A DNA stretch of 64,000 nt from an uncultured Acidobacteriota bacterium. Lineage in GTDB: Bacteria; Acidobacteriota; Thermoanaerobaculia; UBA5066. This document shows positions 42,675-60,460 of the stretch, piece by piece; position 1 is the first letter of the stretch; every line of letters begins with the position of its first letter. Made by a program: the position numbers and the translations under genes. Under the pieces are notes generated by a model. It saw only the letters and a program-made list of their open reading frames with translations, did not search any database and had not been told where the DNA came from. The stretch is from contig CAVZYA010000002.1 in NCBI GenBank assembly GCA_963779415.1, forward strand, positions 1,536,001 through 1,600,000. The letters run 5' to 3'.

Positions 42675-43037
42675 TCAACCTCCTTGTGGCGAATCGTCCG
42701 AACGTCGCGGCGCCTCCGGGGGCAGCGGAGTCGAGGCGACCAGAAAGAAGAGCAGGACCAGGAGCGTCAGGAAGACGACGGTCAACGCGAGCCGCTTGCC
42801 GTGGAAGAGGCTCTCGATCCACTTCCGGATCTCGGCCGCGAGGACGTTCGCGGATCCGCCGTAGACCTCCATCTCGCGAAGATACCGCCTGGAATCCTCG
42901 GGTTCGTAACCGAGGGGATTGGCGGGAGCGATCGTCGCGGTGACGTAGATCAGGAGCGCGCTCCCGAAGCCCGCGACGAGAATGGCGGTGGCGATGAGCC
43001 TGCGGCGAGCGTGCAGCCGTACCGAAGTCAGCGTCAT
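42675..43037 (-). CDS. Hypothetical 2-TM protein
   Basis: Two TM helices; tightly packed in the minus-strand run. Confidence 0.6.
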   Translation of the reverse strand: MTLTSVRLHARRRLIATAILVAGFGSALLIYVTATIAPANPLGYEPEDSRRYLREMEVYGGSANVLAAEIRKWIESLFHGKRLALTVVFLTLLVLLFFLVASTPLPPEAPRRSDDSPQGG

Positions 43038-43043
43038 GCGGCA

Positions 43044-43382
43044 TCACGCCATGAGCTGGCGAACGTGCCTGGAGATCAACCTCAGCTGCTTCGCGTCGGC
43101 GCCCCTGAGCACGGTGCCGGCGATGGGCGACAAGATGCGAATGGCTCCGGAAAGGCCGAAGCTGGCCATCTGCAGTGCGACGAAGTTGAATTTCCCGTCC
43201 TTCAGGGGTTTGAGCAGGTAGTAGTCCATTCCGGCTTCCGTGAGAGACAGAACGAGAGCCGTGAGGGCCTCCGCGTGTCGCGTGGGTTCCGGATCGTCGT
43301 CGATTGCCGAGAGCACCTTCAGGGTCTGCGTCCGGAGGGCCGGCGAGTGCGTGAAACGAAGGGACGGTTTCGAGGCAGGCAT
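43044..43382 (-). CDS. Hypothetical protein
   Basis: MPASKPSLRF... helical ORF in the minus-strand run. Confidence 0.55.
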   Translation of the reverse strand: MPASKPSLRFTHSPALRTQTLKVLSAIDDDPEPTRHAEALTALVLSLTEAGMDYYLLKPLKDGKFNFVALQMASFGLSGAIRILSPIAGTVLRGADAKQLRLISRHVRQLMA

Positions 43383-43426
43383 GGGATGAGGCTCCCCGAT
43401 GCGAAGTCTACGCCGCGAAGACGGCC

Positions 43427-44425
43427 TCACGTTTCGCGGCGAAAGACGGGGCTGAAGACGGCGACGAGGAGTGCCGCGACCATGACCACGAAGAAGAAGA
43501 CCGTCCCGGTCGCTTCGTATCCGGAGAGCCCGAGATCGCCCATGAGATTGAGGGACGTATGCAGAAGCAGGGCGACGAGGATGGAACCCTTCGCTCGAAG
43601 ATAGAGCCAGGTGAAAAGAATCGAAACCGGAATGGCGTAGAAAACGCGCATGAGGACCGCGCCGAAACCGGTGAGGCCGAATCCCGCGTAGAGGTCGATC
43701 GGCAGGTGCCACAAGCCCCAGGCGACGCCGAGGAGGATCGAAGCGCCGACGGGAGTCCTCATCTTCAGGAGCTCGGGGAGCAGGAACCCGCGCCACCCGA
43801 TCTCCTCTCCGAGCGAACCTCCCAGAAGGAGGTTATGGGCAAAGCAGACAAGAACGGTCCACGTCGAAGCGAGAATTCCCCCCTGCAGAGCCGAAATCTC
43901 GAGTCCCTTGCTTCGGGCGCTGGCCACTACCCAGGCGACGAGAAAGAGAACCGGCATGAAGGTGACGGAGAGGAAAACCCATCTGGCCTCGGGCTTCGCC
44001 TGTAGGTTGCCGTTCGCCGGACCGAGGACTCGGCGGTTGAGGGGAGAGAAGAAGAGAAGGATCAGCGCTCCCACGGCCACCGCTGCAACCGACGGCATCA
44101 GCGGGAGCGACGTAATCCGGGAGGGAGCGGCCAGGGCGACGAGCACCCCAGGCACGACGAGCGGCATGAGAATGACGGGAATCGTCCACGGGCTGCTTCG
44201 GCGTTGCTCGGGCCCGAAGGTACTGGAGAGAATCAACCCCGAAAGCGACGGGCCGAAGACGCCGATCTGGGCGACGAGCCAGCGGAAGTCGTACGGGCCC
44301 TGGCCGCCGCGGGGAAGAACTCCCGAAAGGAGCCAGATCGGCCACGACAGGAGGCAGGTCAAGCCAAGGAAGATCCAGACGAATCTGCCGGAGGACTTCG
44401 GGTCGTCCACGGCCTCCGCCGACAT
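43427..44425 (-). CDS. CPBP (CAAX/Abi) intramembrane metalloprotease
   Basis: GEEIGWRGF, WGLWHLP, LLHTSLN. Confidence 0.9.
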   Translation of the reverse strand: MSAEAVDDPKSSGRFVWIFLGLTCLLSWPIWLLSGVLPRGGQGPYDFRWLVAQIGVFGPSLSGLILSSTFGPEQRRSSPWTIPVILMPLVVPGVLVALAAPSRITSLPLMPSVAAVAVGALILLFFSPLNRRVLGPANGNLQAKPEARWVFLSVTFMPVLFLVAWVVASARSKGLEISALQGGILASTWTVLVCFAHNLLLGGSLGEEIGWRGFLLPELLKMRTPVGASILLGVAWGLWHLPIDLYAGFGLTGFGAVLMRVFYAIPVSILFTWLYLRAKGSILVALLLHTSLNLMGDLGLSGYEATGTVFFFVVMVAALLVAVFSPVFRRET

Positions 44426-44455
44426 GGAGACCTCCTGACCGGAGGAATCGCGGGC

Positions 44456-44508
44456 TCCTCACCATACCGCGTTCTCGGCGATGGGCGGACGCGTCCGCCG
44501 CCTCAGGC
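44456..44508 (-). other. Heavily eroded attC-like remnant
   Basis: + strand TCCTCAC CATACCGC GTTCTC GGCGA...GTCCGC...CTCAGGC parallels the 47237 remnant; overlaps the stop codon of the upstream gene. Confidence 0.4.
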
Positions 44509-44931
44509 GGTTCGTGCCTGAGCCCTACCCCGATAGATTCGCGAGACGACCGCTCCGTAGAACGTGAACTCGAGGACTCCTCCCGCGAACCACTTCAGGA
44601 CGAGGCTGAAAGGAAGGGGGTAGAGAAGGTACTGGTTCACGTCGACGAGAAGCGCCACGAGCAGGCCGATGAAGAGGCCGTAACCGAGCCCCTCGCGAAG
44701 CGTTCCGGTTCGCGCGGTACGGACGTAGCCCCAGACGAAGAGGACGCAAACCAGTCCTGTCAGAAGAAGCGACCACCCCATGGCGCCGGGGAGGTCCGTG
44801 CGTCGAAGGTGCTGAACGGCCTCGTTGGCCCGCCGCAGGATGACGAGATGAAGAAGGCTGTTCCAGGCCAACGACAGGACGAAGAGGATGCTGACCGCGA
44901 GAGCGAATCGGGCGAGTTTGGGCACACGCAC
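44503..44931 (-). CDS. Hypothetical 4-TM protein
   Basis: Hydrophobic ORF; stop lies in the attC-like remnant. Confidence 0.65.
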   Translation of the reverse strand: MRVPKLARFALAVSILFVLSLAWNSLLHLVILRRANEAVQHLRRTDLPGAMGWSLLLTGLVCVLFVWGYVRTARTGTLREGLGYGLFIGLLVALLVDVNQYLLYPLPFSLVLKWFAGGVLEFTFYGAVVSRIYRGRAQARTA

Positions 44932-44932
44932 C

Positions 44933-45352
44933 TCACTTCTTCGGACAATCCCAGAGATCCAGTGCGATTCGCATCCGGTTCTGCGGGTCGTACTTCACGG
45001 GCACGACGCGTCCGGGTTGAATCGACGGCACGTCGAGGCGGGATACCAGAGCTTTCGTCTTCGCCTCGTACGGTTCGCCGTCGGCCGGGACGACGCGTAC
45101 GACGAACTCGACGACGGGGTCGTCGTTGATCGTCGTTCCCGTGTCGATGAGCCGGACGATCGTCCCGGTGGCAGATATGCCGGTCGCGAGGATCTCGCAG
45201 GACTCCTTCCGTCCGCTGTAGCTGTCGACGATCGATCGGCAGCCGAGAAGCGCCACAGCGAAGGCGGCGAGAACTGGTATCGCCGGCAGGAACGGCGCGA
45301 AGACCCCTTGGACCGTCGTCGTCGCCGGTCCGCGACGGAGCCTACTCGGCAT
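44933..45352 (-). CDS. Putative lipoprotein (DUF3592-like)
   Basis: LLGC lipobox, DTGTTINDDP, VPVKYDP. Confidence 0.65.
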   Translation of the reverse strand: MPSRLRRGPATTTVQGVFAPFLPAIPVLAAFAVALLGCRSIVDSYSGRKESCEILATGISATGTIVRLIDTGTTINDDPVVEFVVRVVPADGEPYEAKTKALVSRLDVPSIQPGRVVPVKYDPQNRMRIALDLWDCPKK

Positions 45353-45842
45353 GACTCCACGGGAGCGTTCGGTTCGCATACCGCGCCTCTCCGGTGAAGA
45401 GGTGGTAGAGGTAGGAGCCGAGACAAAAGCGGCCGAGGATCAGGGCTCCCAGCGCGGCGAGAAGCAGGGCCTCCAGAGCCCACGCGAACGTGTGCCAGCC
45501 GGAGAAGAGAGTCAGCCCGATCGCGAGCATGAAAGTCCCCGCCATGGCCTGCGCGAACCGTCGTGGATTCGGCGCCGGGCCGAGGGGCGGCCGGCCCCGG
45601 GGTGTCGCCACGAGGCGGTTATAGAGGGCGTCGAAGGGATTCAGAGACGGGAACGCCGCGTTCCACCAGAGAAGCGCCCAGAGAGCGAGGAAGTAAGGCC
45701 ACGGCTGGAACAGCAGGCCAATCAGGACCAGACCCCCGATCGCCCGTGGCTGCCACATCAGGGCCGGATACTGGGTGGCACAGGCTTCCGACGAGGCCTC
45801 CCGGAAGCCCTGCTGCCGCACGAAGTTCACTTCTGCCGTCAT
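45342..45842 (-). CDS. DUF4395-like membrane protein
   Basis: PRRFAQ, FCLGSYLY. Confidence 0.7.
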   Translation of the reverse strand: MTAEVNFVRQQGFREASSEACATQYPALMWQPRAIGGLVLIGLLFQPWPYFLALWALLWWNAAFPSLNPFDALYNRLVATPRGRPPLGPAPNPRRFAQAMAGTFMLAIGLTLFSGWHTFAWALEALLLAALGALILGRFCLGSYLYHLFTGEARYANRTLPWSHAE

Positions 45843-45928
45843 CTGATCCCCCCTGTCCGTATTGGATCATGCAGGTCAAAGGCGATGGGTCTGTCCATAA
45901 TGCCCCTCGACTCCGGCCCGCCGTGACG

Positions 45929-46345
45929 TCAAGAGTCTGCTGATTGTCGAAGCACGGGCTTGATGTCGACCACGGGTGTTCCGTCGATTGCCTCGATCGG
46001 TCCGACTCGCAATCGACTCCCGGCGATCTCGCGAACCGTCACGCGATGTAATCCGAGTGGATTGGGTCTGTCGGGAGAGCGTGTCGCAAAGACCCCCTTC
46101 AGGGGCCGGCTCTCATCCCCGCGCGGATGCACCTTCAGGACGTCGCGATGGGCCTCGTGAAACCACGTGATCAGGATGAGTTCGTCGCCGGCCGAAATGC
46201 CCGCAAGCCCTGCTGCCGCCGTCGAGTTCACTTCGAGCCATGCGTCGGGCGCGCCTTCGTGCCCCTGGTGGGGCGCTACCCGGCAGCTGGTCAGCTCCGA
46301 GTGCAGGACTCCGATGGGCTTGATCGAATAGGTCGCTTCCGTCAT
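45929..46345 (-). CDS. tsaA: tRNA m6t6A37 methyltransferase TsaA/TrmO family
   Basis: GVFATRSPDRPNPLGL, IDGTPVVDIKP. Confidence 0.9.
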   Translation of the reverse strand: MTEATYSIKPIGVLHSELTSCRVAPHQGHEGAPDAWLEVNSTAAAGLAGISAGDELILITWFHEAHRDVLKVHPRGDESRPLKGVFATRSPDRPNPLGLHRVTVREIAGSRLRVGPIEAIDGTPVVDIKPVLRQSADS

Positions 46346-46365
46346 CTCTGGTCCCTGTGTGAGAG

Positions 46366-46974
46366 TTATCGGTCTCTCTCCACCTTCGCGGGCTGACTCC
46401 CCGGGGGTACGATCCCGTTCATTCGAAGGTAGACGACGAGCTGGCCGTAATGATCCGACGCGTGCCAGACGGCGAGCGTCGTCAGCCCCAGGCGCGTGGA
46501 CGGGCCGCCGTACGGTCCGCTCACTGGTTCGAGCGCGTTGGCCGGCGTCATCATCCGGAGCACACTCTGGGCATAGTCGAACGACTGACGCAGGTACGTC
46601 ATGAGTTCGGCCTTGGTCGCGGCGGGGCTCGGCCCGCCGGTCGCGCACCCGGACGGGGGCTCCTTCTTTTCGATTTCGTTGAAAAAGGCGAAGTTTCCGC
46701 ACGCGACGTGTTTGACCTGCTCTCCGAAGGTCCGCGCCTCCTTGAACTCGCCGTTCGTCGGCTTGAACCCGTATTTCTCCGCAGGCATGGCGTCGGCCAG
46801 GCTGACGAACGATCGCTCGATCATCGAGAACGATTGCGCGACGGTGGCCGCCATCGAGTCGCCGCGCTCCTGCGAAAACCCGGCGGGAGCAAACAGGAGA
46901 GAAGCGATACTCACGAGCAGGGTAAAGAATCGCTGGCGAGCGTTCATGCCCTGATTGGAATGATTCGCGTTCAT
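46366..46974 (-). CDS. Secreted DinB family protein
   Basis: Signal-like N-terminus, RTFGEQVKH, HASDHYGQLVVYLRMNGIVPP. Confidence 0.85.
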   Translation of the reverse strand: MNANHSNQGMNARQRFFTLLVSIASLLFAPAGFSQERGDSMAATVAQSFSMIERSFVSLADAMPAEKYGFKPTNGEFKEARTFGEQVKHVACGNFAFFNEIEKKEPPSGCATGGPSPAATKAELMTYLRQSFDYAQSVLRMMTPANALEPVSGPYGGPSTRLGLTTLAVWHASDHYGQLVVYLRMNGIVPPGSQPAKVERDR

Positions 46975-47219
46975 TCTCCGGGCCTCCTCCCCGAATATGT
47001 ACACGTCTCTCGCGTGACCCGAGCGCGCCCCATCCAGACGCAGACTGCGCCCAGGAGCAGAAGGAGCAGACCGGCGCCGAGGAAGTAAAGGTGATGAACG
47101 GCGAAGACCTGCCGAGGCGCAAAGAGCCAGACGATGGCGGGGTAGAGCAGCGAGAAGAGCCCCGCGCCGATGAGAGCAGCTGCGGTAGAGTGATACGGGC
47201 CGAGCGTCGTTTCTGTCAT
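46971..47219 (-). CDS. Small 2-TM hypothetical protein
   Basis: GGAGG RBS; ATGA overlap with the DinB gene. Confidence 0.5.
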   Translation of the reverse strand: MTETTLGPYHSTAAALIGAGLFSLLYPAIVWLFAPRQVFAVHHLYFLGAGLLLLLLGAVCVWMGRARVTRETCTYSGRRPGE

Positions 47220-47236
47220 TCTGACCTCCGGGCGCT

Positions 47237-47296
47237 GGATGACGATACCGCGTCCCGCGGCGACCGGCGCGTGTCCGCAGCAGAGCGTGGTCAGAC
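47237..47296 (-). other. Degenerate attC
   Basis: + strand GGATGAC GATACCGC GTCCCGC GGCGA...GTCCGCAGCAGAGCGTG GTCAGAC aligns with intact attC 55258; contains the DHFR stop. Confidence 0.6.
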
Positions 47297-47812
47297 GGCG
47301 ACCTCGTACTCACTCTGGACGAGACCGCTGGCATACTGACGGGTCGCAACGTGCCTCAGGAGGATATCGTGCGGCGTCGCGCCAAAGAGCGGGATGCCGC
47401 TGCCGATCAGCACGGGAACGCGCGTGATGGTGAGGCGCTGGATGAGCCCGGCCCGAAGAAAGCGTTGAATGGTGATCCCGCCATCCACGTAAAGATGCCG
47501 GATTCCCCGAGCGGAAAGCCGGGAAACGACTTCGGCCGGCGCCCCGGCCATCCGCTCCACGACGGCTCCGTCGGGGGCCGGCGGAAGCGTTCGGGTGCTG
47601 AGGACGAAGACGGGCTTTTCTCCATAGGGCCAGGATGGAAACTTCGCGACGACTTCGAATGTGTTCCGCCCGATGACAAGAGCGTCGACCGTGGCGAAGA
47701 ACTCGTCATAGCCATGAGGTTCGCCGCCGTCGGCCGGCAGAAAGTCGAAGCTCCCGTCCGCACGTGCAATGAAGCCGTCAAGACTCGTGCCGACGAAGAC
47801 GGATGCTTTCAT
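47291..47812 (-). CDS. Dihydrofolate reductase/RibD C-terminal family protein
   Basis: SLDGFIA, GRNTFE, YVDGG, PVLIGSGIPLF. Confidence 0.9.
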   Translation of the reverse strand: MKASVFVGTSLDGFIARADGSFDFLPADGGEPHGYDEFFATVDALVIGRNTFEVVAKFPSWPYGEKPVFVLSTRTLPPAPDGAVVERMAGAPAEVVSRLSARGIRHLYVDGGITIQRFLRAGLIQRLTITRVPVLIGSGIPLFGATPHDILLRHVATRQYASGLVQSEYEVAV

Positions 47813-47832
47813 TACTCAGGCCTCCTGTTGCG

Positions 47833-47854
47833 GCCTGACGATATCAAGCTCCGC
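47833..47854 (-). other. Half attC remnant (R'/L' side only)
   Basis: + strand GCCTGAC GATATCAA GCTCCGC; no matching second arm before the next stop codon. Confidence 0.55.
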
Positions 47855-47873
47855 TGCTTGTTCGACGGATGGC

Positions 47874-48392
47874 TCATTCCCGGGCCCGCCGGGTCCAATG
47901 CCAGAGCCCACGGGTGGCCTCCTTGGGCAGAGGTCGTCCGAGCTGACGCGCGATCAGCACCAGTTGGCCACGATGGTGAGCCTCGTGCGCCACGAAGTAG
48001 CCGAGAAAGTGCTCCAGGTCCGTCGGGAAGTTCTGCCAGGTACTTCGAGGAACGCTGCCCCCGCGTGAAGCACCGAGCTCGATGAGACGAACGATCCCTT
48101 CACTGCTGCGCGACAGGGCCCGCAGGAGCGCTGCGGGAGAGACTCGGCGCAGATCGACGAGCGGAGGCGGGATGATGCCGTGGCGTCCTCCCAGGGCCTT
48201 GATCCACCGACATCGACTGTTATGAAGGTGCGCCGCGACCATCCTCACGGTGCGGCGTGGGGCCCCGGGGACCGACATGGACCAGAGATCTGGCGGGAGT
48301 CGCTCGATCAAGTACGTCGTCACCCGATTGCTCGTTCGCCAGGCGCTGACGAGCCTCGACGGGTTCCCGGCTCTCCGTTCCATCCACGTCAC
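47874..48392 (-). CDS. DinB family protein
   Basis: AHLHNSR, HEAHHRGQ. Confidence 0.88.
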   Translation of the reverse strand: MTWMERRAGNPSRLVSAWRTSNRVTTYLIERLPPDLWSMSVPGAPRRTVRMVAAHLHNSRCRWIKALGGRHGIIPPPLVDLRRVSPAALLRALSRSSEGIVRLIELGASRGGSVPRSTWQNFPTDLEHFLGYFVAHEAHHRGQLVLIARQLGRPLPKEATRGLWHWTRRARE

Positions 48393-48413
48393 GGCCTCGA
48401 TGTCTCCCTATCC

Positions 48414-48473
48414 GTCGAACGATATCAAGCTCAGTGGTGACAGCAGCGAGTCCGCCGGAACGCGGGGTCAGAC
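48414..48473 (-). other. Degenerate attC
   Basis: + strand GTCGAAC GATATCAA GCTCAGT...GCGAGTCCGCCGGAAC GCGGG GTCAGAC. Confidence 0.7.
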
Positions 48474-48890
48474 GCCGCGCCGGGACCTGGCCCGTGCGAC
48501 GAGGCCAAGCAGGTGCGCGACGCCAATGCCGAGGGATAGTGCCGAGAAGGCCGCCTGACGAACGGGATACCCGGCGCCGCGCCACAACCGAATGAAGTCC
48601 GGAACGAGCACGAGGCCGCGAAGGATATAGACGCCCGCGATGAAGACCAGCACGGTGCGAACGAGGGGAAGGGGCGCCAGGACGCCGGCGCCAGAGAGGG
48701 CATAGGCGCCCCAGATGAAGAACATGACTGCGATTGCGGCCGTGATGAGGGCCGGAGCGAGGGAACCTTGGCGCGCCTGCAGTGCCAGGGAGGAGGCTCC
48801 GAAATAGAGGTATCCCGGTGCTCCGATGAAGATGATGACGACATGCAGGAGTGCTATGGCGAAGCTCCCGGTGGCGCCGCGGTGAGCCAA
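48468..48890 (-). CDS. Cassette membrane protein
   Basis: LHVVIIFIGAPGYLYFGA, YALSGAG, IAGVYILRG; stop in R'' box; start uncertain. Confidence 0.7.
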   Translation of the reverse strand: MAHRGATGSFAIALLHVVIIFIGAPGYLYFGASSLALQARQGSLAPALITAAIAVMFFIWGAYALSGAGVLAPLPLVRTVLVFIAGVYILRGLVLVPDFIRLWRGAGYPVRQAAFSALSLGIGVAHLLGLVARARSRRGV

Positions 48891-48941
48891 GCGCGTGTCC
48901 GGGTCGGGATGAGAGGCTGTGACTTCAGGTTCCCTCGCGGT

Positions 48942-49011
48942 GTCTAACGCTCAAGCTAAGCCGATGTGACCGCCGGGGGCGGCCACGGTCGGCTTGAGCG
49001 CCTGGTTGGGC
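48942..49011 (-). other. attC site (70 bp)
   Basis: + (bottom) strand GTCTAAC GCTCAA GCTAAGC...GCTT(G)AGC GCCTG GTTGGGC with extrahelical G. Confidence 0.92.
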
Positions 49012-49046
49012 AGTACCTCATGCCTTCTTCCAGAGTGACTCCCGGC

Positions 49047-49607
49047 TCACGTCCGGCCACGGCCCTGTGACTTCGGGGCGCTGGACCGGAGATTCTCCGC
49101 GACCGCGGCCTGGATCAAGGCCTTGAACGCCTCAGCATCGAGCACCTCTCCCTCCCTGATGTCGATGGCGCGACGCGTGTTTCCATCGAGGCTGGAGTTG
49201 AAGAGCCCCCGAGGGTCCTCCAAGGAGGCACCCCGGGCGAAGGTCAGCTTGACCACCTGTTTGTAGGCCTCTCCGGTGCAGACGATCCCAGCGTGGGACC
49301 ATACGGGCACCCCCAATGGGTTGGTGGGCTTGATCCATTTGCACTCCTCCACGATGTCCGGGTCCGCCTCGTGGATAAGGCGGCGAACCTCCGCCAGGGT
49401 CTCGGCGCGCCAGCCACCCAGAGACCGGATCCGCTCGTCGATGAGATGAGAGGCCGCCATCGCGGTCGCGCGCTCCGCTTCCGCACCGGGCTTGGCCTTC
49501 GCGCCTGCCTTCGGCGGAGACTTGGCCCCGGCGGCCGGCTTGCGTGGCTTGCTCGCGCGCGACGTGCCCTTGGCCTTCGGCTCACTTCTCTTTGGTTTTC
49601 GCGCCAC
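49047..49607 (-). CDS. DUF1801 (YdhG-like) cassette protein
   Basis: WRAETLAEVRRLIHEADP, CTGEAYK, FNSSLDGNTRRAIDI. Confidence 0.88.
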   Translation of the reverse strand: MARKPKRSEPKAKGTSRASKPRKPAAGAKSPPKAGAKAKPGAEAERATAMAASHLIDERIRSLGGWRAETLAEVRRLIHEADPDIVEECKWIKPTNPLGVPVWSHAGIVCTGEAYKQVVKLTFARGASLEDPRGLFNSSLDGNTRRAIDIREGEVLDAEAFKALIQAAVAENLRSSAPKSQGRGRT

Positions 49608-49632
49608 GATTCATTCTTCAATTTGTTGTCAT

Positions 49633-49731
49633 GCCCAATGACGACCGGCGTTCAGCCGCTTGCACGAGCCCTTCTGCGCGTGCTCGCACAGAGCGGGGCG
49701 AGTGCCAGTCGGCTGCAACGGCACGTTAGAG
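49633..49731 (-). other. attC site with damaged crossover core
   Basis: GCCCAA(TGA)C GACCGGC GTTCAGC...GCTGCAAC GGCAC GTTAGAG. Confidence 0.8.
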
Positions 49732-49762
49732 GGCCCCGCAGACGGAATGGCGAGAGGTGACC

Positions 49763-50410
49763 TCAGATCGACCGCTCCATGAGAATGGTGGCCTCCGCAC
49801 TCTCGATAGACGCGAAGACTGCCTGGCCATGGAACTGGAAAGTCTTGTAGGGTGCGGACAGAACGTCGTTGAAGCCCAGCTTCCGGAAGACATGCTGGGA
49901 CACACTGCCTGTCGCTTCGGTGACTGCGGTGCGGTAACCAAGGTGCTCACCATTAGCGAGGCAGCTTGAGATGAGCTGGTGGGCGATACCTCTGCCAGAA
50001 GCTGAGCGCGCGACACCTAGCATGAACAGGTGGAGGTGTGTGCCGGGGGCAATGTCCCGTGTGGCGCGGTACGAAGTGTCGAGGCTGTCGAGCAAGGCGC
50101 CGATCGGAGCGAAGGTGGGTGCAAGAAGGTGGAGACCGTCTGGCGTTGGCGTGCCGAAGTCATCGGTGAGCAGTGCACCGACGAGATCGCCCGTGAAGGT
50201 GTCGCGTGCGACCAGGGTGAGCCGCTCAGAAAGCGCCTTCGGGACGAAAGCCGGCAGGAAGCCCTGGATTTCGGCTATGGAAAGACCGAGTGCCACGGCG
50301 GGCGGGTCATAAAGGCTGAACACCTCAGCAAGCAGGCGAACCATGGAATCCGCTTCTGGCGCTTGGAGGAGCCCGTATTCGATATCACCGACAACACTGA
50401 GAGGAATCAT
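49763..50410 (-). CDS. GNAT acetyltransferase cassette (AANAT-like)
   Basis: HLFMLGV...SGRGIA, TEATGSVSQHVFRKLGF. Confidence 0.85.
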   Translation of the reverse strand: MIPLSVVGDIEYGLLQAPEADSMVRLLAEVFSLYDPPAVALGLSIAEIQGFLPAFVPKALSERLTLVARDTFTGDLVGALLTDDFGTPTPDGLHLLAPTFAPIGALLDSLDTSYRATRDIAPGTHLHLFMLGVARSASGRGIAHQLISSCLANGEHLGYRTAVTEATGSVSQHVFRKLGFNDVLSAPYKTFQFHGQAVFASIESAEATILMERSI

Positions 50411-50424
50411 GTGTCTCCTGGGCC

Positions 50425-50490
50425 ACCTAACGCTTCGCCGATAACCTGCGGGGCGCGAAGCGATCCGTCAGGTTCATCGGCAGGTTAGGC
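50425..50490 (-). other. attC site (66 bp)
   Basis: ACCTAAC...CCGATAACCTG...CAGGTT(C)ATCGG CAG GTTAGGC. Confidence 0.9.
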
Positions 50491-50627
50491 AGTGCGCCTC
50501 GCTGCCAGATATCGTGGTTCTGCGTGAAGTGGGTACTCGTCCATTCGACCTCGCAATAGCCCCTTCGGAGAAATCCGGAGGGGTCTTCGCATTCGGCCGC
50601 CGTTGACGCACAGTTTGGCAGATAGGG

Positions 50628-51305
50628 CTAGAGAGAGATCGACGGGTTGTGCGCATATTTCAGGCAGCCTCGGAACCTGCGCGCCCAGATTCGCTTGAGG
50701 AGCAGCTTCCGTACGAGCCATGGCATCCCTGCGAAATGAAACTTCTGCTCGTCGTCGGTGAGGGAGTGCACGAGCAGCATGAGTACCGACGGGCCGCCGA
50801 CGCGCTGCCCGTGCTTCGACGATCGCACCTCGAGCGCGAGGACCTCGTCGGCGCGCAGCAGCTTCGCCAGGGCCGTCCCGTCGAGCGCCGACTCCTCCGC
50901 GTCGAGGTGCGGGAACAGAACGTTTCGAACTTCGTCCGCTGTCCGATGCAGCGTCTCGTACGATCCGCCCTTGCGGAACTGCGCCGTGGCCGTCTCGAAC
51001 GCGCTCAAGCGGCCGAGGAGCTTCTCGTGATCGGCGCGCCAGCCCACGACGTCCGAGGCGTACGCGGGCAGCGAGGCGCGTGCGGCGACCTCCGTCAGCT
51101 TCGGGAAGATGATCTTCTCTTCACCGTCGTGGTGGGTGTGCAGGAAGCGCGTGAAGAGCGCACAGAACTCGGCGAAGTCGGCGCGATCGCCCTCGGGCAC
51201 GGGGGCGGCTGAGACGCGCACGATCGTTTCGAGGCTGCGCCGAAGAGCTGTGTGGATCCGGATCAGGCTCTGGGCCATCAGGTCAGACGGCGCCGACGCG
51301 TTCAT
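50628..51305 (-). CDS. Hemerythrin-domain protein
   Basis: IHTALRR, HHDGEE, DH, HLDAEE. Confidence 0.85.
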   Translation of the reverse strand: MNASAPSDLMAQSLIRIHTALRRSLETIVRVSAAPVPEGDRADFAEFCALFTRFLHTHHDGEEKIIFPKLTEVAARASLPAYASDVVGWRADHEKLLGRLSAFETATAQFRKGGSYETLHRTADEVRNVLFPHLDAEESALDGTALAKLLRADEVLALEVRSSKHGQRVGGPSVLMLLVHSLTDDEQKFHFAGMPWLVRKLLLKRIWARRFRGCLKYAHNPSISL

Positions 51306-51544
51306 GGGGTCACCATGGCCGACGGGCGGCCGAGCGGAAGACCTTCGCACGTCTCGAACGGGGTGCTTGACATGCCTCCACGCTACCACGAACGCGCCGA
51401 CGCAACTTCGAGATGACCACTCAATGTCGCGTGTATCTTCGCTGGGTGTTTCTGCCCAAAGAGCGAGCCGGCTTCGTCAGGTTCTTCGGCACATCGGGCT
51501 TCGACATGATTCAAGTCTGTCTAACGATAGGACCTTGCTCCGGT

Positions 51545-52384
51545 TTAGTTGACACCGCTGTGGATAGGGGCCTGGGCTTCGAAGATGGCCGGAGGAAGGT
51601 ACCCAAGCGACGAATGGAGCCGCTTCTGATTGTAGAAGCGGACGTAGTCGAGGAGGGCCGTCCTGAGTTCGGAGTCGGTCTGGAGCGTCATTCCGAAAAG
51701 GCACTCCGTCTTCAGCGAGTGAAAGAACGACTCCATGTGAGCGTTGTCGTTCATCTGCCGCGGGCGATTCATGCTCTGTAGAAAGCCCCGGCGGGACAGC
51801 GAGGCTCGAAGGTCGAGGGCGGCGTATTCGATTCCCCGGTCGCTGTGGAAGGTGACGCCGGGGGAGGGGCGCCGCCATCGGACGGCGTGAGAGAGGGCGC
51901 GCCGGGTGAGCGAAGCGTCCCGATTCCGGCCCAGGCTCCAGCCGAGGACCCTTCGGGAGTGCCGGTCCATGACGACGGCGAGGTACCACCAGCGGCCGGC
52001 GACCCGGACGTAGGTGACGTCCGCCACCCAGAGCTGGTTCGGGCTCGTTGTCGTGACGCCGTGGACCGTGTTCGGATGCACCCGATAGAACGCTTTCTGA
52101 CCCACCCGCGACCGGCGATAAAGACGGGCCGAGCGGCCCTGGAGTTGCGCCAGCCGCATCAGGCGGGCGACCCTTCGGCGGCCGACCGGGACCCCTTGCC
52201 GCCCGAGTTCCCGCGTCACCCGGGGGCTGCCGTAAAGCCCCCTGGCCTCCTGGAACACCGCGAGAACCCGTTCGGTCATCGCCGCATCAGACGCCGTTCG
52301 GCGGCTCGGTCGTCTGCTCCGCCAGGCATAGAACCCGCCCCGCGTGACGCCGAACCTCCTGCACATCAGGCTCACCGGGAACAA
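51545..52384 (-). CDS. IS3 OrfB DDE transposase
   Basis: YGSPRV, WVADVTY, FHSDRG, DNAHMESFFHSLKTE; probably joined to OrfA by a -1 frameshift. Confidence 0.93.
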   Translation of the reverse strand: MFPVSLMCRRFGVTRGGFYAWRSRRPSRRTASDAAMTERVLAVFQEARGLYGSPRVTRELGRQGVPVGRRRVARLMRLAQLQGRSARLYRRSRVGQKAFYRVHPNTVHGVTTTSPNQLWVADVTYVRVAGRWWYLAVVMDRHSRRVLGWSLGRNRDASLTRRALSHAVRWRRPSPGVTFHSDRGIEYAALDLRASLSRRGFLQSMNRPRQMNDNAHMESFFHSLKTECLFGMTLQTDSELRTALLDYVRFYNQKRLHSSLGYLPPAIFEAQAPIHSGVN

Positions 52385-52728
52385 GCTCCGGTTCGCCTCG
52401 AGGAACGCGAAGACGTCCCCCGTAACTCGCGGGCGAACCGGATCGCTCTTTTTAGGAGTTCGTGCTCCATCTTCAGCCGCTTGTACTCGCGCTCAACCTC
52501 CCGTAGCCGTTGGAGCTCACCCACGGCTTTCACGTCCAGAGCCGGCAAGGCACCACGAAGCTCACCGTCCCGAGCCTGCTTGCGCCAGCGCGACAGCATG
52601 AACGGGTGAATGCACAGTGACTCCGTCACGTCCCGGACCAGAACGCCGGGCTGCTGACTCAGTTGAACAGCCCGCAGCTTGAACTCCTGGCTGTAGCTTC
52701 TGACTCTCCGGGGTCCTGCTTTTCCCAT
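52372..52728 (-). CDS. IS3 OrfA (HTH)
   Basis: YSQEFKLRAV, LSRWRKQ, leucine zipper. Confidence 0.9.
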   Translation of the reverse strand: MGKAGPRRVRSYSQEFKLRAVQLSQQPGVLVRDVTESLCIHPFMLSRWRKQARDGELRGALPALDVKAVGELQRLREVEREYKRLKMEHELLKRAIRFARELRGTSSRSSRRTGACSR

Positions 52729-52856
52729 CGTGACCTCTCTAGTTAGCTCAGAGTGTCAACGATACCGAAGCAACCTCCGAGTCCGCTGCAACGCGTGGTT
52801 AGACGGCATACGGTGGGGCGATGGCGGTGCGGGATGCAGAGCGACCGCCGCTAGAT

Positions 52857-53129
52857 CTAGGTTGACTGACGCACGGCAGCTGTCTCGTTGCGCTGAGCCG
52901 CCTTGGCGCCGGTATAGATGAACAGCGATACGCCGAGCAATATCGCCGGCAACAGAGTTCCTGCGGCGAGGAGCGGCAGGAAAGATGCGTCCGACGGAAG
53001 GCCCGCCTGGATAAGCAGCACGCGAAGAGCCCAGGCCACGAATGGACATGGGACAGCGAGAATGAACCAGAGACGAGCCCACCGAAAAAGCCGCGACGAT
53101 TTGGACGACGAGGCGTGTTCTCGAAACAT
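52857..53129 (-). CDS. Small 2-TM cassette protein
   Basis: ATG 3 nt after the GTTAGAC core; cassette bounded by 12-bp inverted GTTAGACGGCAT. Confidence 0.6.
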   Translation of the reverse strand: MFREHASSSKSSRLFRWARLWFILAVPCPFVAWALRVLLIQAGLPSDASFLPLLAAGTLLPAILLGVSLFIYTGAKAAQRNETAAVRQST

Positions 53130-53253
53130 GCCGTCTAACGATAGGCGTTCAGCGGCGAGCGAAGCGAGATGGAATGAGAAGGCCGGCCTCCCGTCGCAGT
53201 CTGAAAATCAGCTGCAGGTCAGACGGGCTCGAGGCCCAGAGAGGAGACCGGCC

Positions 53254-54406
53254 ATGAGGAAGCGTAGCACCGGAGCGGCGACGATGGACCCAACCCCGAA
53301 GAGGACGAGGAGGTACGAAGGGACGGAGACGGAGGGCAGGGTGTCCTCGAGCAACCTGACCGTGGGCGTGGACCTTGGGGATCGGGTGAGCCACGTGTGT
53401 GTGCTGGACTCCAAGGGAGAGATCGTCGAGGAGATGCGTGTGGCAACGACGAGGAGCGGGTTGAGGCGAGCGCTGGGCGGCGAGCGCCTCGGGAAGTGCC
53501 GGATCGCCATGGAGGTCGGGACGCACTCGCCGTGGGTGAGCCGACTGCTCGAAGAGATGGGGCACGAGGTGCTGGTGGCCAACCCGCGCAAGCTGCGGTT
53601 CATCTACCAGAGCCGCGGCAAGACGGACCGGGTGGACGCACGATCGCTGGCGCGGGTGGCGAGGATGGACCCGGCGCTGCTCTCGCCGGTGGAGCATCGG
53701 TGCGAGCCGTTCGCGCAGGACCTGGCCGTGCTGCGGACGAGGGACTTGCTGGTGCGGACCCGGGTGAAGCTGATCGGGCATGCGCGGGGAGCGGTGAAGG
53801 CCACGGGACACCGGTTGAAGGCGAGCTCGACGCGGAGCTTCACCGTCGAGGCCGGACCGATGCTTCCGGAGGAGCTGAAGGAGACGCTGGGGCCCGTCCT
53901 CTCTGCGATCGACGCCGTGTCGGAGCAGATCCGCGCCCTGAACCGGAAGGTTCGCGAGCTGGCGAAGAAGAAGCACCCGGAGACGGAGCTGCTGCGGCAG
54001 GTGCCGGGAGTGGGCTTCATCCTGTCGCTGGCGTTCGTCCTGACGCTGGAGCGAGCGGACAGGTTCGAGAAGAGCCGGATGGTGGGGCCGTACCTCGGGC
54101 TGGTGCCCGGACGCCGGCAGAGCGGCGACAGCGATCCGCAGCTGAGGATCACGAAGGAGGGCGACGACTTCGTGCGCCGCCTGCTGGTCCAGGCAGCCCA
54201 GTACATCCTGGGACCGTTCGGCCCCGACTGTGACCTTCGTCGGTTCGGCCTGGCGCTGGAGGCACGCGGCGGAAGGTACGCCAAGAAGCGAGCCATCGTC
54301 GCCGTGGCCCGGAAGCTGGCGGTCCTTCTGCATCGACTCTGGAGCTCGGGAGAGGTCTACGACCCGGCTCGCCAGGTGCGCCCGGCCCGACGCATCGGCG
54401 GCGTAG
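53254..54406 (+). CDS. IS110 DEDD recombinase/transposase (likely +1 frameshift near 54385)
   Basis: GVDLG, AMEVG, KTDRVD, VPGVG, YLGLVPGRRQSG; GAGGAG RBS; likely true end ...PDASAA* at TAG 54404-54406. Confidence 0.9.
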
Positions 54407-54504
54407 AGAACGACGAGAGTTTCTTAGAAAGAAGAGAGAGACGGGAGCCCCGACAGTCGGGAACGGTGAGAAGGAACGCAATACATGGAATCGAATCGAC
54501 GCCC

Positions 54505-54660
54505 TGTCTGGGCGACTGCGAAGCGGACTCGGGTCCGGAGGGCCATCCGGCTGCTCCAAGAAGACCGACAGCGAGATGGCAGCGCCCTTTCAGCTCGGAC
54601 ACCCTCATGCACCGAGCGCCGCAGCGCGGCGACGAGAGTGCGAATGGAAGCGAGGTGATC
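54505..54660 (+). ncRNA. Putative bridge/seek RNA of the IS1111 element
   Basis: Two stem-internal-loop units carrying AGCGGACT, AGCGAG (target) and ATGGAAG (donor) matches; boundaries approximate. Confidence 0.75.
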
Positions 54661-54700
54661 GATTCGACGTCCCCAGGGAGACCGAGCCCCCGCTTCTCAC

Positions 54701-54706
54701 TTGACA
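54701..54706 (+). promoter_or_regulatory. -35 box of the IS circle-junction promoter
   Basis: TTGACA just inside IRR; a GAAGAT -10 would form 18 bp downstream only after end joining. Confidence 0.65.
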
Positions 54707-54751
54707 CGACCGGGCCTTCTCATGGAAGTCCGCTGCAGCGCGGGGTTAGGC

Positions 54752-55248
54752 GGCAGCGCCAGAAGACGTGGGCGGCGAATAGCCCAGCAGGATGCTGCGC
54801 AAGAAGACGGCCGTCCCGAGGCGTTACCGGAACCGCGACAATGCTGCCCATTCCAAGGGCGGTAACGATGAAGATGGAGAAAGAACAGGAACACGCCCCA
54901 GGCGTCTTCTAGCGGAGGTGGGAAGACCCATCTGAAAGGACGATAAGAGTGGCGTAGAGGGACGACGGTGCCGCCCACAAAGAACGATGCCTCCGAACAG
55001 GAAGCTGTGCCTGATGCTCGACATGCGGAAGGCTCTGAGTTAGAGGCGTCCAGAGGAGTAGGCCAAAGCGGCGACCAGGAATGCTCCCGGATAGCGGAGA
55101 GCGAGAAGACTCGGACGCTCATGAAACCCTGCCGCGCGGAGCGTAACCAGGTTAGGGCGGGATGCCCCAGGACACCCCAAGTAAGGGCGAATGCTGCAAC
55201 GAGCGAATGCTGAAACACGGAGCTTTGTAGAAAGCGAGGTCGCGACAT
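54752..55248 (-). pseudogene. Cassette membrane-protein gene with several frameshifts
   Basis: ATG 55248 just after attC; hydrophobic segments spread over three frames; cassette bounded by inverted GTTAGGCGGC. Confidence 0.45.
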
Positions 55249-55257
55249 GAGGTCGCC

Positions 55258-55337
55258 GCCTAACGATATCGAGTTCAGCGGCGAAGAGGAAGGAGCGCAG
55301 CGACTGACGATGAGTCCGCTGCAATGAGGTGTTAGGC
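55258..55337 (-). other. attC site (80 bp)
   Basis: GCCTAAC GATATCGA GTTCAGC...GAGTCCGCTGCAAT GAGGT GTTAGGC. Confidence 0.92.
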
Positions 55338-55725
55338 GGCAGTGGTGGACGAACGAGCAGGGCCTGAATGGCCCGCCAGTGACGCCGGGCTCCGAACATT
55401 GCCCCCGGCCGAGGGAGATGGAGAGAAACGGAGAACGCGCGAGAGAGAGATGGTGCTTTGATTTGGCCGAGGATGACTCGCGAAGCCACGTGAGGTTCGA
55501 AACGGCCCACTGAGCCGCTGGCGATAGCAGATTGCGTGACACGGCAGGCGCGACTTCCTCCCTACAGATTGTGGCGAGGTTTCCTAACGAGTAACCGGAC
55601 GCCGTAAGCACCGCTGCGATACGCGCGTAGTCCGTGGGTTGCAACTCGGTGTCGAGCCAGAATTCCGACAGCGCCTGCCATACAGGCTGACGTCGCTCGA
55701 CATCAAGAAGGGCGTCACTCAGCAC
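55338..55725 (-). CDS. First cassette: DUF7079-like hypothetical protein (3' end frameshifted or uncertain)
   Basis: RRQPVWQALSEFWLDTEL...SGYS...EEVAP...NLLS; GTG 7 nt after the core site. Confidence 0.6.
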
Positions 55726-55732
55726 GTTCGCC

Positions 55733-55776
55733 GCCCAACTAGTAGTAGACGGACGTTGACAAGGGTGGATAGACGG
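55733..55776 (-). other. Putative attI
   Basis: - strand CGTCTAC-TACTA-GTTGGGC (degenerate L, 5-bp spacer, R); no attC hairpin; extra TAGACGG repeats. Confidence 0.7.
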
Positions 55777-55936
55777 AAGAAACGTCGGTGTAGCGGCCGG
55801 GGAGGAAGTGCGACGGCGAGGCGGGAAGCCCCTGATTAGACGGGCTTTCTCGCTGACAGGATTGCGCAGACTCTGGAGTGATAGGCCGAAAAAGATTCGG
55901 CTTAGTGCCGTCGGTGTTAGGCCGACGACAAGAGGG

Positions 55937-56902
55937 TCAGAGCGCATCGAGGGGGCTCCGGACACCGCGTCCTCCTGCCTGGTTCAGGACGTGAGTGTAG
56001 ATCATCGTGGTCGTCACATCCCGGTGTCCCAGCAGCTCCTGGATGGTCCGGATGTCGTAGCCCCCTTCCAGGAGATGCGTCGCGAAGGAGTGGCGGAAGG
56101 TGTGGCAGCTGACCGACTTCGGGATGCCGGCTTTCCCGGCCGCCTCCTTGACCGCTTTCTGGATGGTCGTCTCGTGAAGATGGTGGCGGCCGGTGCGTCC
56201 GGTGCGCGGATCGGTGCTGAGGCCGGGCGCCGGAAAGGCGTATTGCCAGGCCCACTGCCGGCTCGCGGCCGGGAACTTCCGCGTCAAAGCATCGGGGAGC
56301 CACGTCTCGCCGAGACCGCGCTTGAGATCGGCGTCGTGAAGAGACTTCACCTCGACCAGATGCTGGCGAAGCGTCTCGGAGAGGGAGGCCGGAAGCATCG
56401 TCCGTCGGTCCTTCTGCCCCTTGCCGTCGCGGACGAGGATCTGGTTGAGGGCGAAGTCGAGGTCCTTGACGCGGAGGCGAAGGGCCTCCATCAGCCGCAG
56501 GCCGCTGCCGTAGAGAAGGGTGGCGACGAGGCGCGGGGCGCCGTCGAGGCGGGAGAGGACGGCCTTGACCTCGGCGGGGGTGAGGACGACGGGAAGGCGC
56601 GCGGGGCGGCGGGCGCGGACGACGTCGCCGAGAGACTCGAGCGGCTTCCCGAGGACGTCGCGGTAAAGGAAGAGCAGGGCCGAGAGCGCCTGGTTCTGGG
56701 TGGAGGCGGCCACCTTCTTCTTCACCGCGAGGTCGGTGAGAAAGGCATTGATCTCGGCCTCGCCCATCTCGTCCGGATGGCGCTTGCCGTGGAAGAGGAC
56801 GTACCTTCGGACCCACGCGACGTAGGCCTCCTCGGTCCGCAGGCTGTAGTGTCGCGCGCGGAGGGCGGCGCGGAGGCGGTCGAGAAGGCGGGGCTTGTCC
56901 AT
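55937..56902 (-). CDS. intI: Integron integrase
   Basis: [31 protein letters not shown] and the IntI-specific insert [24 protein letters not shown]. Confidence 0.97.
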
Positions 56903-56913
56903 GGCGTTGCTTC

Positions 56914-57339
56914 TTACTTCCGTGCCGATCCTGCTCTTTCTTCCCCGCTCTTGCGCTTCGTGCGGCGGCGGGACTCCGGCCGCCGGCGTGGCCGGGCTCC
57001 CTTTGGCCGGGCATGTCTCGGCTCGTAGACGCCGAGCGTCCCCCCGCCGGGGAGGGTGACCCGGGTCAACAGCCCCCAGCCCAGGTTCTGAACGGGACTG
57101 CAAGGAACCCCGTGCCGGGCCATCGCGGAGACGAACGCTTTGGCGTCTTCGCAGATGAAATAGAACTCGTGGAGGTCGTTCTTCCGGGACGGATGAACCG
57201 CCACCTCCGCGGGCGGCAGGCCGAAGATGAGCCAGCTGTCGCCGACATCGACGTGCGGGAGCCGGAGGACGTCCCGAAGGAAGGCCCGGTCGGCCTCGGG
57301 CTTGCGGCTGTAGATGATCGAATGGGCGCCCGTGATCAT
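56914..57339 (-). CDS. VOC/glyoxalase family protein
   Basis: [11 protein letters not shown]...[10 protein letters not shown]...GWG...LGVYEPRH. Confidence 0.85.
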
Positions 57340-57347
57340 GTGAGCCT

Positions 57348-57827
57348 CTATTTTTCTTTCGCCTGCGCCGCCGCGCGGCGGGCCATCTCCTCGGGGGAGA
57401 CGTCCTCGATGTGGGTGGCGAAGCCCCACTGGTGGCCGAAGGGGTCCTTCAGGAAGCCCATCCGGTCGCCGTAGAACTTGTTCGTCACGGGCTGCATCTC
57501 GGTGGCGCCGGCCGCGAGGGCCCTCTTGAAGAAGGAGTCGACGTCCTCGACGTAGACGAGCATCGAGAAGGACGTCCCTCCGAGCGTGTCGGGGGAGAGC
57601 GCGTGCATGGCCGCGTTCTCGTCGGCCAGCATGACGCGGGCCTTGCCGACGGAGAACTCGGCATGCCCGACCTTCCCGTCGGGGCCGTCCATGCGGACCT
57701 CCACCTTGGCTCCGAAGGCGCGCTTGTAGAAGTCGAGGGCCTTCGCGGCGCCCCGGATGTAGAGGTAGGGGGTGGCCCCCTCGGCGCCGGCGGGGATGGG
57801 GGCGGGTTTGGTGGCGGCTGTGGTCAT
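57348..57827 (-). CDS. VOC family protein (PhnB-like)
   Basis: TPYL...[31 protein letters not shown]; AAGGAG RBS. Confidence 0.9.
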
Positions 57828-57898
57828 GGTCGTCTCCTTTCCATGGGGCTTTTCGTTGAGATCCGGTCTCGATTGTTCCTCTCGTTTCACCGGATTGC

Positions 57899-59448: not shown

Positions 59449-59650
59449 AAAGGTGAGCGATCAGGGAGGTTCTTCTACCGGCCAACGCTCGGCGCCAGGA
59501 GAGTCGGGTAAGCACTAGCGCCTCGCTCGGCTCAGCGAGCGCGGACGACTTAGAGCATCTCCCGCGCGTCCCCGGGCGCGCTCGCTTCGACGTGGCCGCA
59601 CGGAGAGTCCCGCCGGTCGTTGCAGGAGATCGCTTTCGTTATTTTTTTCT

Positions 59651-60391: not shown

Positions 60392-60409
60392 GGCATTTCC
60401 GGGATGGAA

Positions 60410-60438
60410 AACGTAGGCGCAATAAAGACGTAAGTCAA
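60410..60438 (-). promoter_or_regulatory. Sigma70-type promoter of imuA
   Basis: - strand TTGACT-17 bp-TACGTT. Confidence 0.75.
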
Positions 60439-60460
60439 GGGTGTGCCGACTGAGCCGTGA

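Follow-up and report, generated by a model that had tools for sequence, protein, structure and literature searches.

The 64,000-nt stretch of contig CAVZYA010000002.1 analysed here (called the window below; G+C content 69%) carries an integron, many attC sites of which contain the hexamer ACGATA, read as TATCGT on the cassette strand. The original prediction took this hexamer for a -10 promoter element built into the attC sites, which would survive their erosion and serve the next cassette whatever its distance from the cassette promoter Pc. The integron harbors an integrase gene, intI, whose product aligns to the whole of TIGR02249 (469.2 bits, profile positions 1-315 of 315). Among its relatives, collected at 80 loci by a scan of genome contigs with IntI, the closest belong to two Thermoanaerobaculia metagenome-assembled genomes, L001 and L007 (70-72% identity, 72% for L007), which makes an origin of the window in this class probable. 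The integrase gene and its putative attachment site are located as follows:

55937..56902, minus strand: intI, encoding an integron integrase of 321 aa; start at 56902, within the minus-strand frame 55937-57448; same strand as the cassettes
55731..55744, minus strand: candidate attI crossover, TACTAG/TTGGGCGG on the cassette strand (the slash marks the crossover), 193 nt past the intI stop

The motif ACTAG/TTRG is kept downstream of intI in five genomes (window 55731-55744, L007 11474, L001 2717, L023 3047 and L037 1606) and probably represents the attI crossover, the position of which is presumed. It has an A/T-rich TACTA where attC sites have a GATA patch, and no TANNNT in that register. In the window, two CCGTCTA direct repeats precede it and may be integrase-binding repeats.

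The cassettes adjoin intI and their open reading frames (ORFs) have a single orientation. Every Pfam-bearing ORF in 43427-51389 is on the minus strand (Rce1-like, DUF4395, TrmO_N, RibD_C, DinB, DUF1801, GNAT and hemerythrin). Since intI and the cassettes point in one direction, the arrangement is that of an 'inverted' integron; a sub-clade of inverted IntIs is mentioned by Ghaly et al. (PMC8352920). The attC matches, all on one strand, extend from 55337 down to 47237, with an additional relic at 44456. Sites of the ACGATA family are assigned below to subfamilies a, b and c, which are described further on:

55258..55337, plus strand: attC 1, subfamily b, intact; hexamer 55263-55268; 69.6 bits with covariance model R1 (55255-55340); hairpin of -19 kcal/mol; identical to the subfamily b copies of L007 at 71/75 positions
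54727..54752, plus strand: attC 2, 3' part (L'' arm and R'' box); nhmmer model positions 39-65, E = 2.2e-4
53133..53168, plus strand: attC 2, 5' part (R' box, GATA and L' arm); hexamer 53138-53143; nhmmer model positions 2-40, E = 1.7e-6; 20 bits with R1, from 53130
52757..52807, plus strand: attC 3R, subfamily c, L' arm partly deleted; hexamer 52759-52764; nhmmer model positions 36-65, E = 1.1e-6; 12.7 bits with R1 (52752-52807); adjoins the end of an IS3-family element
51519..51531, plus strand: attC fragment 3L, R' box and GATAGG alone; hexamer 51524-51529; has TAACGATAGG in common with attC 2
50425..50490, plus strand: attC 4, other family, reads CTAACGCTTC, no hexamer; 25.4 bits with R1 (50422-50493); hairpin of -22.1 kcal/mol with T and C bulged in the 3' arm
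49636..49731, plus strand: attC 5, other family, R' box CAATGAC, no hexamer; 15.7 bits with R1 (49633-49734), E = 0.068; hairpin of -28.9 kcal/mol
48942..49011, plus strand: attC 6, other family, reads CTAACGCTCAAGC, no hexamer; 23.5 bits with R1 (48939-49014); folds
48414..48473, plus strand: attC 7, subfamily a, worn; R' GTCGAAC, R'' GTCAGAC; hexamer 48419-48424 with TGn on the cassette strand; 44.2 bits with R1 (48411-48476)
47833..47869, plus strand: attC 8, subfamily a, about 20 nt of the hairpin deleted, R' GCCTGAC; hexamer 47838-47843 with TGn; 15.6 bits with R1 (47830-47869); nhmmer model positions 2-26, E = 0.0064
47237..47296, plus strand: attC 9, subfamily c, worn; R' TGAC and R'' GTCA still pair; hexamer 47242-47247; 36.2 bits with R1 (47234-47299)
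44456..44515, plus strand: relic of a subfamily c attC; ACCATA at 44461-44466, TATGGT on the cassette strand; found by local alignment

Nine attC sites, all on the plus strand, are detected in the window by R1, a covariance model built from an 18-row alignment (A2: 17 copies of L007 and attC 1) with hand-written R-box and L-box pairs and searched with filters off. A MAFFT alignment of six heterogeneous window sites (A1), in which the L' arms were misaligned, was left out of the modelling. A sequence-only nhmmer search recovers the same family members, i.e. attC 1, 7, 9 and 8, both halves of attC 2 and attC 3R; a search of the window against Rfam at gathering thresholds gave no family match. 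We assign the role of recombining (bottom) strand to the plus strand, the cassettes being read on the minus strand, because the T and C bulges lie in the plus-strand 3' arm and attC 1 scores 69.6 bits on the plus strand versus 11.3 on the minus strand. In this reading, RYYYAAC ... GTTRRRY pairs lie between the ORFs. The core boxes are AAC/GTT in attC 1, 4 and 6, AAC/GTC in attC 7, GAC/GTC in attC 9, GAC/GTT in attC 5 and GAC in attC 8. DNA folds of -19 to -29 kcal/mol are obtained for attC 1, 4, 5 and 6, whereas attC 8 (-5.4 kcal/mol only) has no stable hairpin. By core boxes, hairpins and array layout taken together, these elements are predicted to be integron attC sites.

The relic at 44456 is the least conspicuous of these elements. 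Its local score against subfamily c is 36 (about 80% identity), a value reached by 12 of 2,842 90-nt windows, true attC sites among them. It is detected neither by the covariance model (E up to 10) nor by nhmmer (E up to 50), which finds no relic of the family within 43-47 kb of the window. The remnant with TATGGT that the original prediction reported at 44456 is thus real, if weakly supported; 44456 is the start of the remnant, the hexamer itself being at 44461-44466. It stands 35 nt ahead of the ATG of the Rce1-like gene (43427-44425). Between attC 9 and this relic, the segment 43427-47219 holds six or seven more minus-strand genes with no attC detected among them. Either the attC sites of these genes are wholly eroded or the genes are not cassette DNA.

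Two peculiarities of individual sites may be added. The stop codon TGA of cassettes 9 and 7 (47291-47293 and 48468-48470) is inside the R'' core, which reads GTCTGAC and not GTCTAAC, the core variant being made of the same bases as the stop codon. Moreover, attC 6 has extra bases (a bulge of 2-3 nt) in the plus-strand 5' arm, unlike the other sites, and might be an inverted site or have a different design.

The hexamer is enriched in the array. ACGATA occurs 11 times on both strands of the window versus 6.38 +/- 2.33 times in shuffled sequences (11 being reached by 5 of 100 shuffles), and eight of these occurrences are on the plus strand of 47242-55268 (8,027 nt), where 0.40 would be expected from the shuffle rate (Poisson P ~1e-8). 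Seven of the eight are at the R' end of an attC site or attC fragment. The six copies listed in the original prediction (47242, 47838, 48419, 51524, 53138 and 55263) are correctly placed, and a further copy at 52759, at the R' end of attC 3R, is the seventh one linked to an attC. The eighth, at 54940, is within no attC match of R1 or nhmmer and is probably a chance occurrence. On the recombining strand, the family reads RYYYAAC-GATAY, and ACGATA consists of the 'AC' of the AAC cleavage triplet and the four bases with which the 5' spacer arm begins. The cassette strand reads TATC/GTTAGRC: the last two bases of the hexamer are G and the first T of the R' core, and the crossover is inside the hexamer. 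TATCGT at the seven window sites and at 18/18 sites of L007, and TATGGT at the relic, all fit TANNNT; positions T1, A2, T3 and T6 are kept in all of them.

The same family is found in L007, where YTAACGATA recurs 18 times past intI, always on the same strand. These near-identical sites all carry CTAACGATA (18/18) and fall into three subfamilies with differing L arms and the same GATA:

Subfamily a, L007: GATATCAAGCTCAGCGG ... GCAGCGCGTTGTTAG
Subfamily b, L007: GATATCGAGTTCAGCGG ..., 80 nt; the type of attC 1
Subfamily c, L007: GATACCGCGTTCAGCGG ... GCAACGCGTGGTTAG

In alignment A2, 95.4% of the pair cells are standard and two pairs are changed on both sides; five of the seven R-box pairs are invariant, and pairing in the L helix is complete (100%), one pair having been changed on both sides. 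Since 46 of 500 shuffles attain the covariation score, covariation is weak, the family being too uniform for a strong signal. CTAACGATA is invariant in A2, and the L-box sequences TCAGCGGCGA and GAGTCCGCTGCA are equally invariant in intact sites of the family. Within the spacer, only GATA is invariant: the next positions (T/C, then A/G/C) and the facing arm (GCGTT, GAGGT or TG) vary by subfamily. The original prediction had proposed to examine conservation position by position and had named a lack of excess as counting against a promoter; GATA does exceed the other spacer positions.

The comparison was extended to the 80 IntI loci, in which R1 finds 104 sites at E <= 0.1 in 28 loci, 100 of them (from 27 loci) with an AAC core. 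Since R1 was built on the GATA family, spacer frequencies in the other loci are biased, if at all, towards the motif. The base after AAC is G in 98/100 sites (80/82 outside L007), and the following bases outside L007 are A in 44/82, T in 24/82 and A in 28/82. TANNNT in this register is found in 18/18 sites of L007 versus 3/82 related sites elsewhere. Counts of TANNNT in the last 30 nt outside L007 (top strand 13/85, bottom strand 2/85) are left uninterpreted because of the same bias of R1. Two other families have their own conserved spacer start. In the L073 family (Verrucomicrobiae), TAACGAGA is present in 17/17 distinct sites and later spacer positions vary; in the L003 family, the first spacer base is kept in 15/15 sites and the next three in 13-14/15. 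Their top strands, TCTCGT and AGGTCGT, respectively, are not -10-like. These attC families thus share, as a general property, a family-specific constancy of the first four spacer bases, and no promoter is needed to explain it.

As an aside to these counts, the G after AAC is shared by attC sites from very different phyla, and the core consensus could gain one base.

The worn sites (attC 7, 9 and 8 and the 44456 relic) were each aligned to the nearest L007 subfamily and their changed positions counted. Statistics thus rest on three or four sites with references from another genome; these references are adequate because the intact attC 1 differs from subfamily b at only 4/75 positions. Changes affect 12/55 positions in attC 7 (none in the 17 nt after the first base), 11/55 in attC 9 and 14/55 in the relic, while attC 8 has one change in its first 16 nt and has then lost about 20 nt. 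The hexamer is changed at 1/24 positions versus 43/173 elsewhere in the worn sites (p = 0.014). GATA taken alone does not reach significance (1/16 versus 43/181, p = 0.089). The 12-nt block from AC onward is changed at 1/48 positions versus 43/149 (p = 1.5e-5) and is the least changed of the 44 possible 12-nt blocks. Outside this block, A/T reference positions are changed more often (22/46) than G/C ones (14/83), hence a drift towards G+C; mutation bias is thereby ruled out as the cause of the survival of the patch. These data bear out the claim that the hexamer persists in worn sites, since the patch beside the core is much better kept than the remainder.

The accompanying claim that the recombination core and second arm of these sites have decayed holds in part. 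GAC replaces AAC at 47242 and 47838, GTC replaces GTT in the R'' box of 48419 and 47242, the arms of these two contain mismatches and about 20 nt of the hairpin are lost at 47838. However, GTC alone is no proof of decay, because attC sites with GTC recombined with wild-type attI1 at wild-type levels in the IntI1 experiments reported in PMC2811028. Furthermore, attC 7 still scores 44 bits and both changes in its L' arm keep G-T pairs; in attC 9, the changes in R' (TGAC) and R'' (GTCA) match each other. Loss of recombination can thus be accepted for attC 8 and probably for the relic, and not clearly for attC 7 and 9.

A comparable remnant is present in L007, where a solo GACGATATCGTTATGG without hairpin stands at 11741, inside the first stretch after attI. 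Only its R'-proximal end is kept, as in the worn sites of the window, and we interpret the element as what is left of a subfamily b attC. Its near-palindrome had suggested an attI site, a possibility ruled out since ACTAG/TTRG is the motif conserved after intI in five genomes. An nhmmer search for relics of the family in the 80 loci found none, returning only 8 weak partial matches from other attC families.

The other expected features of a promoter occur unevenly. A two-hexamer scan for a -35 element combined with a -10 gave 0 sites both in 43000-57200 of the window (1.3 expected) and in 10900-20942 of L007 (1.8 expected). At 17 nt upstream of the hexamer, the family has GCTACG, a 2/6 match to a -35 (L007 copies, by eye). 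The extended -10 TGaTATCGT announced at 47838 and 48419 is present in the sequence; TGn is confined to subfamily a, i.e. to 13/18 sites of L007 and 2/7 of the window. Hexamer-to-start distances in the window are 8 nt for attC 2, 14 for attC 1, 22 for attC 9, 25 for attC 8, 26 for attC 7, 35 for the relic and 134 for fragment 3L. Two of these call for caution: the ORF 14 nt after attC 1 is doubtful (third-position G+C of 0.63), and the 134 nt of fragment 3L lead to the GTG of the hemerythrin gene, an ATG at 16 nt not being in frame. L007 shows distances between 3 nt and at least 59 nt. The original prediction was right that an ATG lies 8 nt downstream of the hexamer at 53138, where it opens the ORF 52857..53129 encoding a 90-aa hydrophobic protein of no family; leaderless spacing does not hold as a general feature, since this is a single case among distances of 3-134 nt and only 53138 fits a leaderless unit. 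Ribosome-site matches follow the four worn sites, of GGAGG type before the starts at attC 8, attC 9 and the relic and GAGG before the GTG at attC 7. In addition, several cassettes of L007 have an ATG 10-21 nt after the hexamer with no Shine-Dalgarno match by eye. What remains of the portable promoter is the invariance of the hexamer across the family, its fit to TANNNT and its survival in worn sites; a -35 element, a general TGn, a uniform spacing to the start and a match in attI are not found. The hexamer is a candidate -10 only, for which promoter activity is possible.

With somewhat more belief than doubt, we favor, as the simplest account compatible with all the families, the view that ACGATA is a lineage-specific recombination-site consensus of one attC family, in a chromosomal integron of Thermoanaerobaculia type. 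'AC' would be part of the AAC triplet cut by IntI, G the near-universal next base and ATA the family-specific start of the unpaired spacer, the whole being kept as part of the recombination site used by this integrase lineage. The patch, directly 3' of the cut, would be located in the strand-exchange region and would have to stay unpaired; the spacer facing it is G/C-rich, and the candidate attI has a comparable A/T-rich TACTA at the same place. TATC/GT would then fit TANNNT because an A/T-rich patch ends in the GT of the core. We infer that a role in recombination conserves the patch and that any transcription from it would be incidental. attC sequence and structure are described as taxon-specific, Acidobacteria included (PMC8352920), and spacer inversion as altering recombination and strand choice (PMC5027507). 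Several points weigh against this view. The spacer is described in the latter work as unbound by the integrase and not conserved in sequence (PMC5027507). In worn sites, constraint from recombination should not outlive the core and arms, and A/T positions of the 12-nt block are changed in 0/17 cases versus 22/46 outside it (p = 1.5e-4). Losses extend to A/T positions that recombination requires and that do not vary in the family (among them the initial A of AAC, the final T of GTT and the L-box A:T pair): 15/36 of them, versus 0/12 of those in the hexamer (attC 7, attC 9 and the relic; p = 0.005). Of all the evidence, this speaks most strongly for a promoter. Furthermore, attC 8 has no hairpin and yet 14 intact bases from the 'AC' of the core onward, and the solo relic of L007 (GATATCGTTATGG) survives without hairpin. 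Start codons are found 22-35 nt after all four worn sites, with ribosome-site matches, a layout that an independent transcription unit would have. Recombination leaves the survival of the patch in worn sites unexplained, and a promoter therefore stays alive as an explanation.

According to that alternative, TATCGT (TGaTATCGT in subfamily a) would be a working -10 or extended -10: RNA polymerase would open the A/T patch and start at about the last base of the R' core, each attC of the family would transcribe the next cassette whatever its distance from Pc, and, after fixation of the cassette and wear of the hairpin, selection would keep the patch as a promoter. We hold this to be rather unlikely, although several points speak for it. 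TANNNT alone, with no -35, is the usual promoter signal of high-G+C bacteria, and T1, A2, T3 and T6 of the hexamer are kept in all sites of the family; the patch withstands the drift towards G+C, genes with good ribosome sites follow the worn sites, and many cassettes of L007 start 10-21 nt after the hexamer without visible Shine-Dalgarno match. A start inside attC is known for one Vibrio cassette, F2 (PMC11014356). However, there is no -35, TGn is limited to one subfamily, start distances are scattered (3 to at least 59 nt in L007, 8-134 nt in the window) with one leaderless case, and no ORF is present in the stretch after the solo relic of L007. Moreover, TANNNT is in register in only 3/82 related attC sites and is missing from attI, and the same four positions are invariant in families unable to form a -10. 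The worn-site statistics come from three or four sites, and GAC/GTC cores may still recombine (PMC2811028), so that loss of recombination is not established for attC 7 and 9. The patch of worn sites could also serve another role in the leader, either as an A/U-rich ribosome standby or S1-binding stretch on a polycistronic transcript or as the site of a nucleoid or regulatory protein, which we consider quite improbable. The protected block (12-17 nt) is indeed wider than the hexamer and precedes the start codons by 22-35 nt, whereas no known motif fits all three subfamilies; an IHF-like WATCAA, the first half of the IHF consensus, was ruled out as a family-wide motif since it is limited to subfamily a. 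According to PMC8876359, translation of a cassette is hindered by the attC hairpin before it; loss of the arms with an open A/U patch kept would then help. Very improbable, finally, is a lack of any selection on the worn-site patch, its survival being an accident or a matter of history: the sites are few, attC 8 may have undergone one recent deletion, and unknown subfamilies may have been compared with the wrong references. The small number of worn sites, the use of references from another genome and the value for GATA alone would allow it; the closeness of attC 1 to subfamily b of L007, the rank of the block beside the core among the 44 blocks and its p-value oppose it.

Some attC sites of the window are associated with insertion sequences (ISs):

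53169..54728, plus strand: IS110-family element inside attC 2; transposase 53254-54430 (PF01548 and PF02371); junctions from the sequence and the nhmmer halves
51549..52758, minus strand: IS3-family element; orfA 52372-52728, orfB 51545-52384; HTH_Tnp_1, rve and HTH_21; ends TGACAC...GTGTCA

The IS110-family element interrupts attC 2 between GCGAG and TCCGCTG, next to the extrahelical T, and has short terminal inverted repeats, about ATGAGAAGGCC, read by eye. It resembles the attC-targeting IS1111-attC group. The IS3-family element has no target duplication visible at its ends, and its flanks (51517-52812) are two different attC pieces: on one side, the 13-nt fragment with R' and GATAGG, followed by 18 unrelated nt, nothing more of that site being found by R1 or nhmmer beyond 51519..51531 (the remainder is missing beside the IS); on the other side, a nearly whole subfamily c attC, the R' box of which now starts within the IS end. 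This suggests an adjacent deletion or an IS-mediated rearrangement.

Other features surround the array. Third-position G+C is 0.55-0.67 in attI-proximal cassettes (52813-55262) versus 0.69-0.82 in attI-distal ones. Directly upstream of intI and on the same strand (56914-60952, minus), an ImuB-like gene (PF00817) and an ImuA/RecA-like gene (PF00154) are SOS mutagenesis genes. A short ORF in the frame of intI, by eye of glyoxalase/VOC type, stops 12 nt before the intI start.

In the standard integron model, cassettes are promoterless and expressed according to their distance from Pc. If the hexamer were a promoter, the whole array would be constitutively expressed from its recombination sites, a route would exist from captured cassette to ordinary gene, and the view of the cost and 'memory' function of chromosomal integrons would have to be revised. 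Even without a promoter, the first four spacer bases by the AAC cut are invariant or nearly so within three unrelated attC families, which contradicts the usual statement that the spacer is not conserved and points to an integrase-specific sequence preference beside the cleavage site. No explanation yet accounts fully for a worn-site patch that outlasts core and arms.

With regard to known systems, mobile elements can also sit at attC. IS1111-attC insertion sequences do so, like the IS110-family element in attC 2, and they are mobile elements, not attC sequence. Group IIC-attC introns have outward promoters and can drive the next cassette from an attC, and differ in being inserted mobile elements (PMC3001079). 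Were the hexamer a promoter, it would resemble the gene-less promoter cassettes of Vibrio superintegrons (Blanco et al. 2024, PMC11014356) and the promoters in the 5' untranslated regions of the cmlA, qac and qnrVC1 cassettes (PMC8876359), which likewise allow Pc-independent downstream expression. Those promoters are located in cassette bodies or 5' untranslated regions and are individual to each cassette, whereas the candidate described here is part of a repeated recombination site. Our literature search returned no description of an attC family with a -10 built into it; the closest case, and the only reported start inside attC, is that of cassette F2 (PMC11014356).

As for the site itself, GATA(Y) corresponds to the 5' arm of what Nivina et al. 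(2016) call the unpaired central spacer, located between R' and L' and unpaired with the facing arm (PMC5027507). In contrast to the description of the spacer as not conserved in that work, the present family and those of L073 and L003 vary little or not at all at its first four bases. The closest likeness is with the taxon-specific attC families of sedentary chromosomal integrons, such as the Vibrio cholerae repeats and the families modelled by Ghaly et al. in 2021, Acidobacteria included (PMC8352920): near-identical attC sites along an array, common here to the window and L007, inverse R''/R' cores, L boxes and one-strand bulges, with integrase and sites that appear to covary. The window differs from them in that intI has the direction of the cassettes, the sites are short (55-80 nt) and the array mixes the family with three foreign attC types and worn copies. 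In addition, the recombining strand has C as the bulged base closest to the R box, where G is described as usual (PMC5027507).

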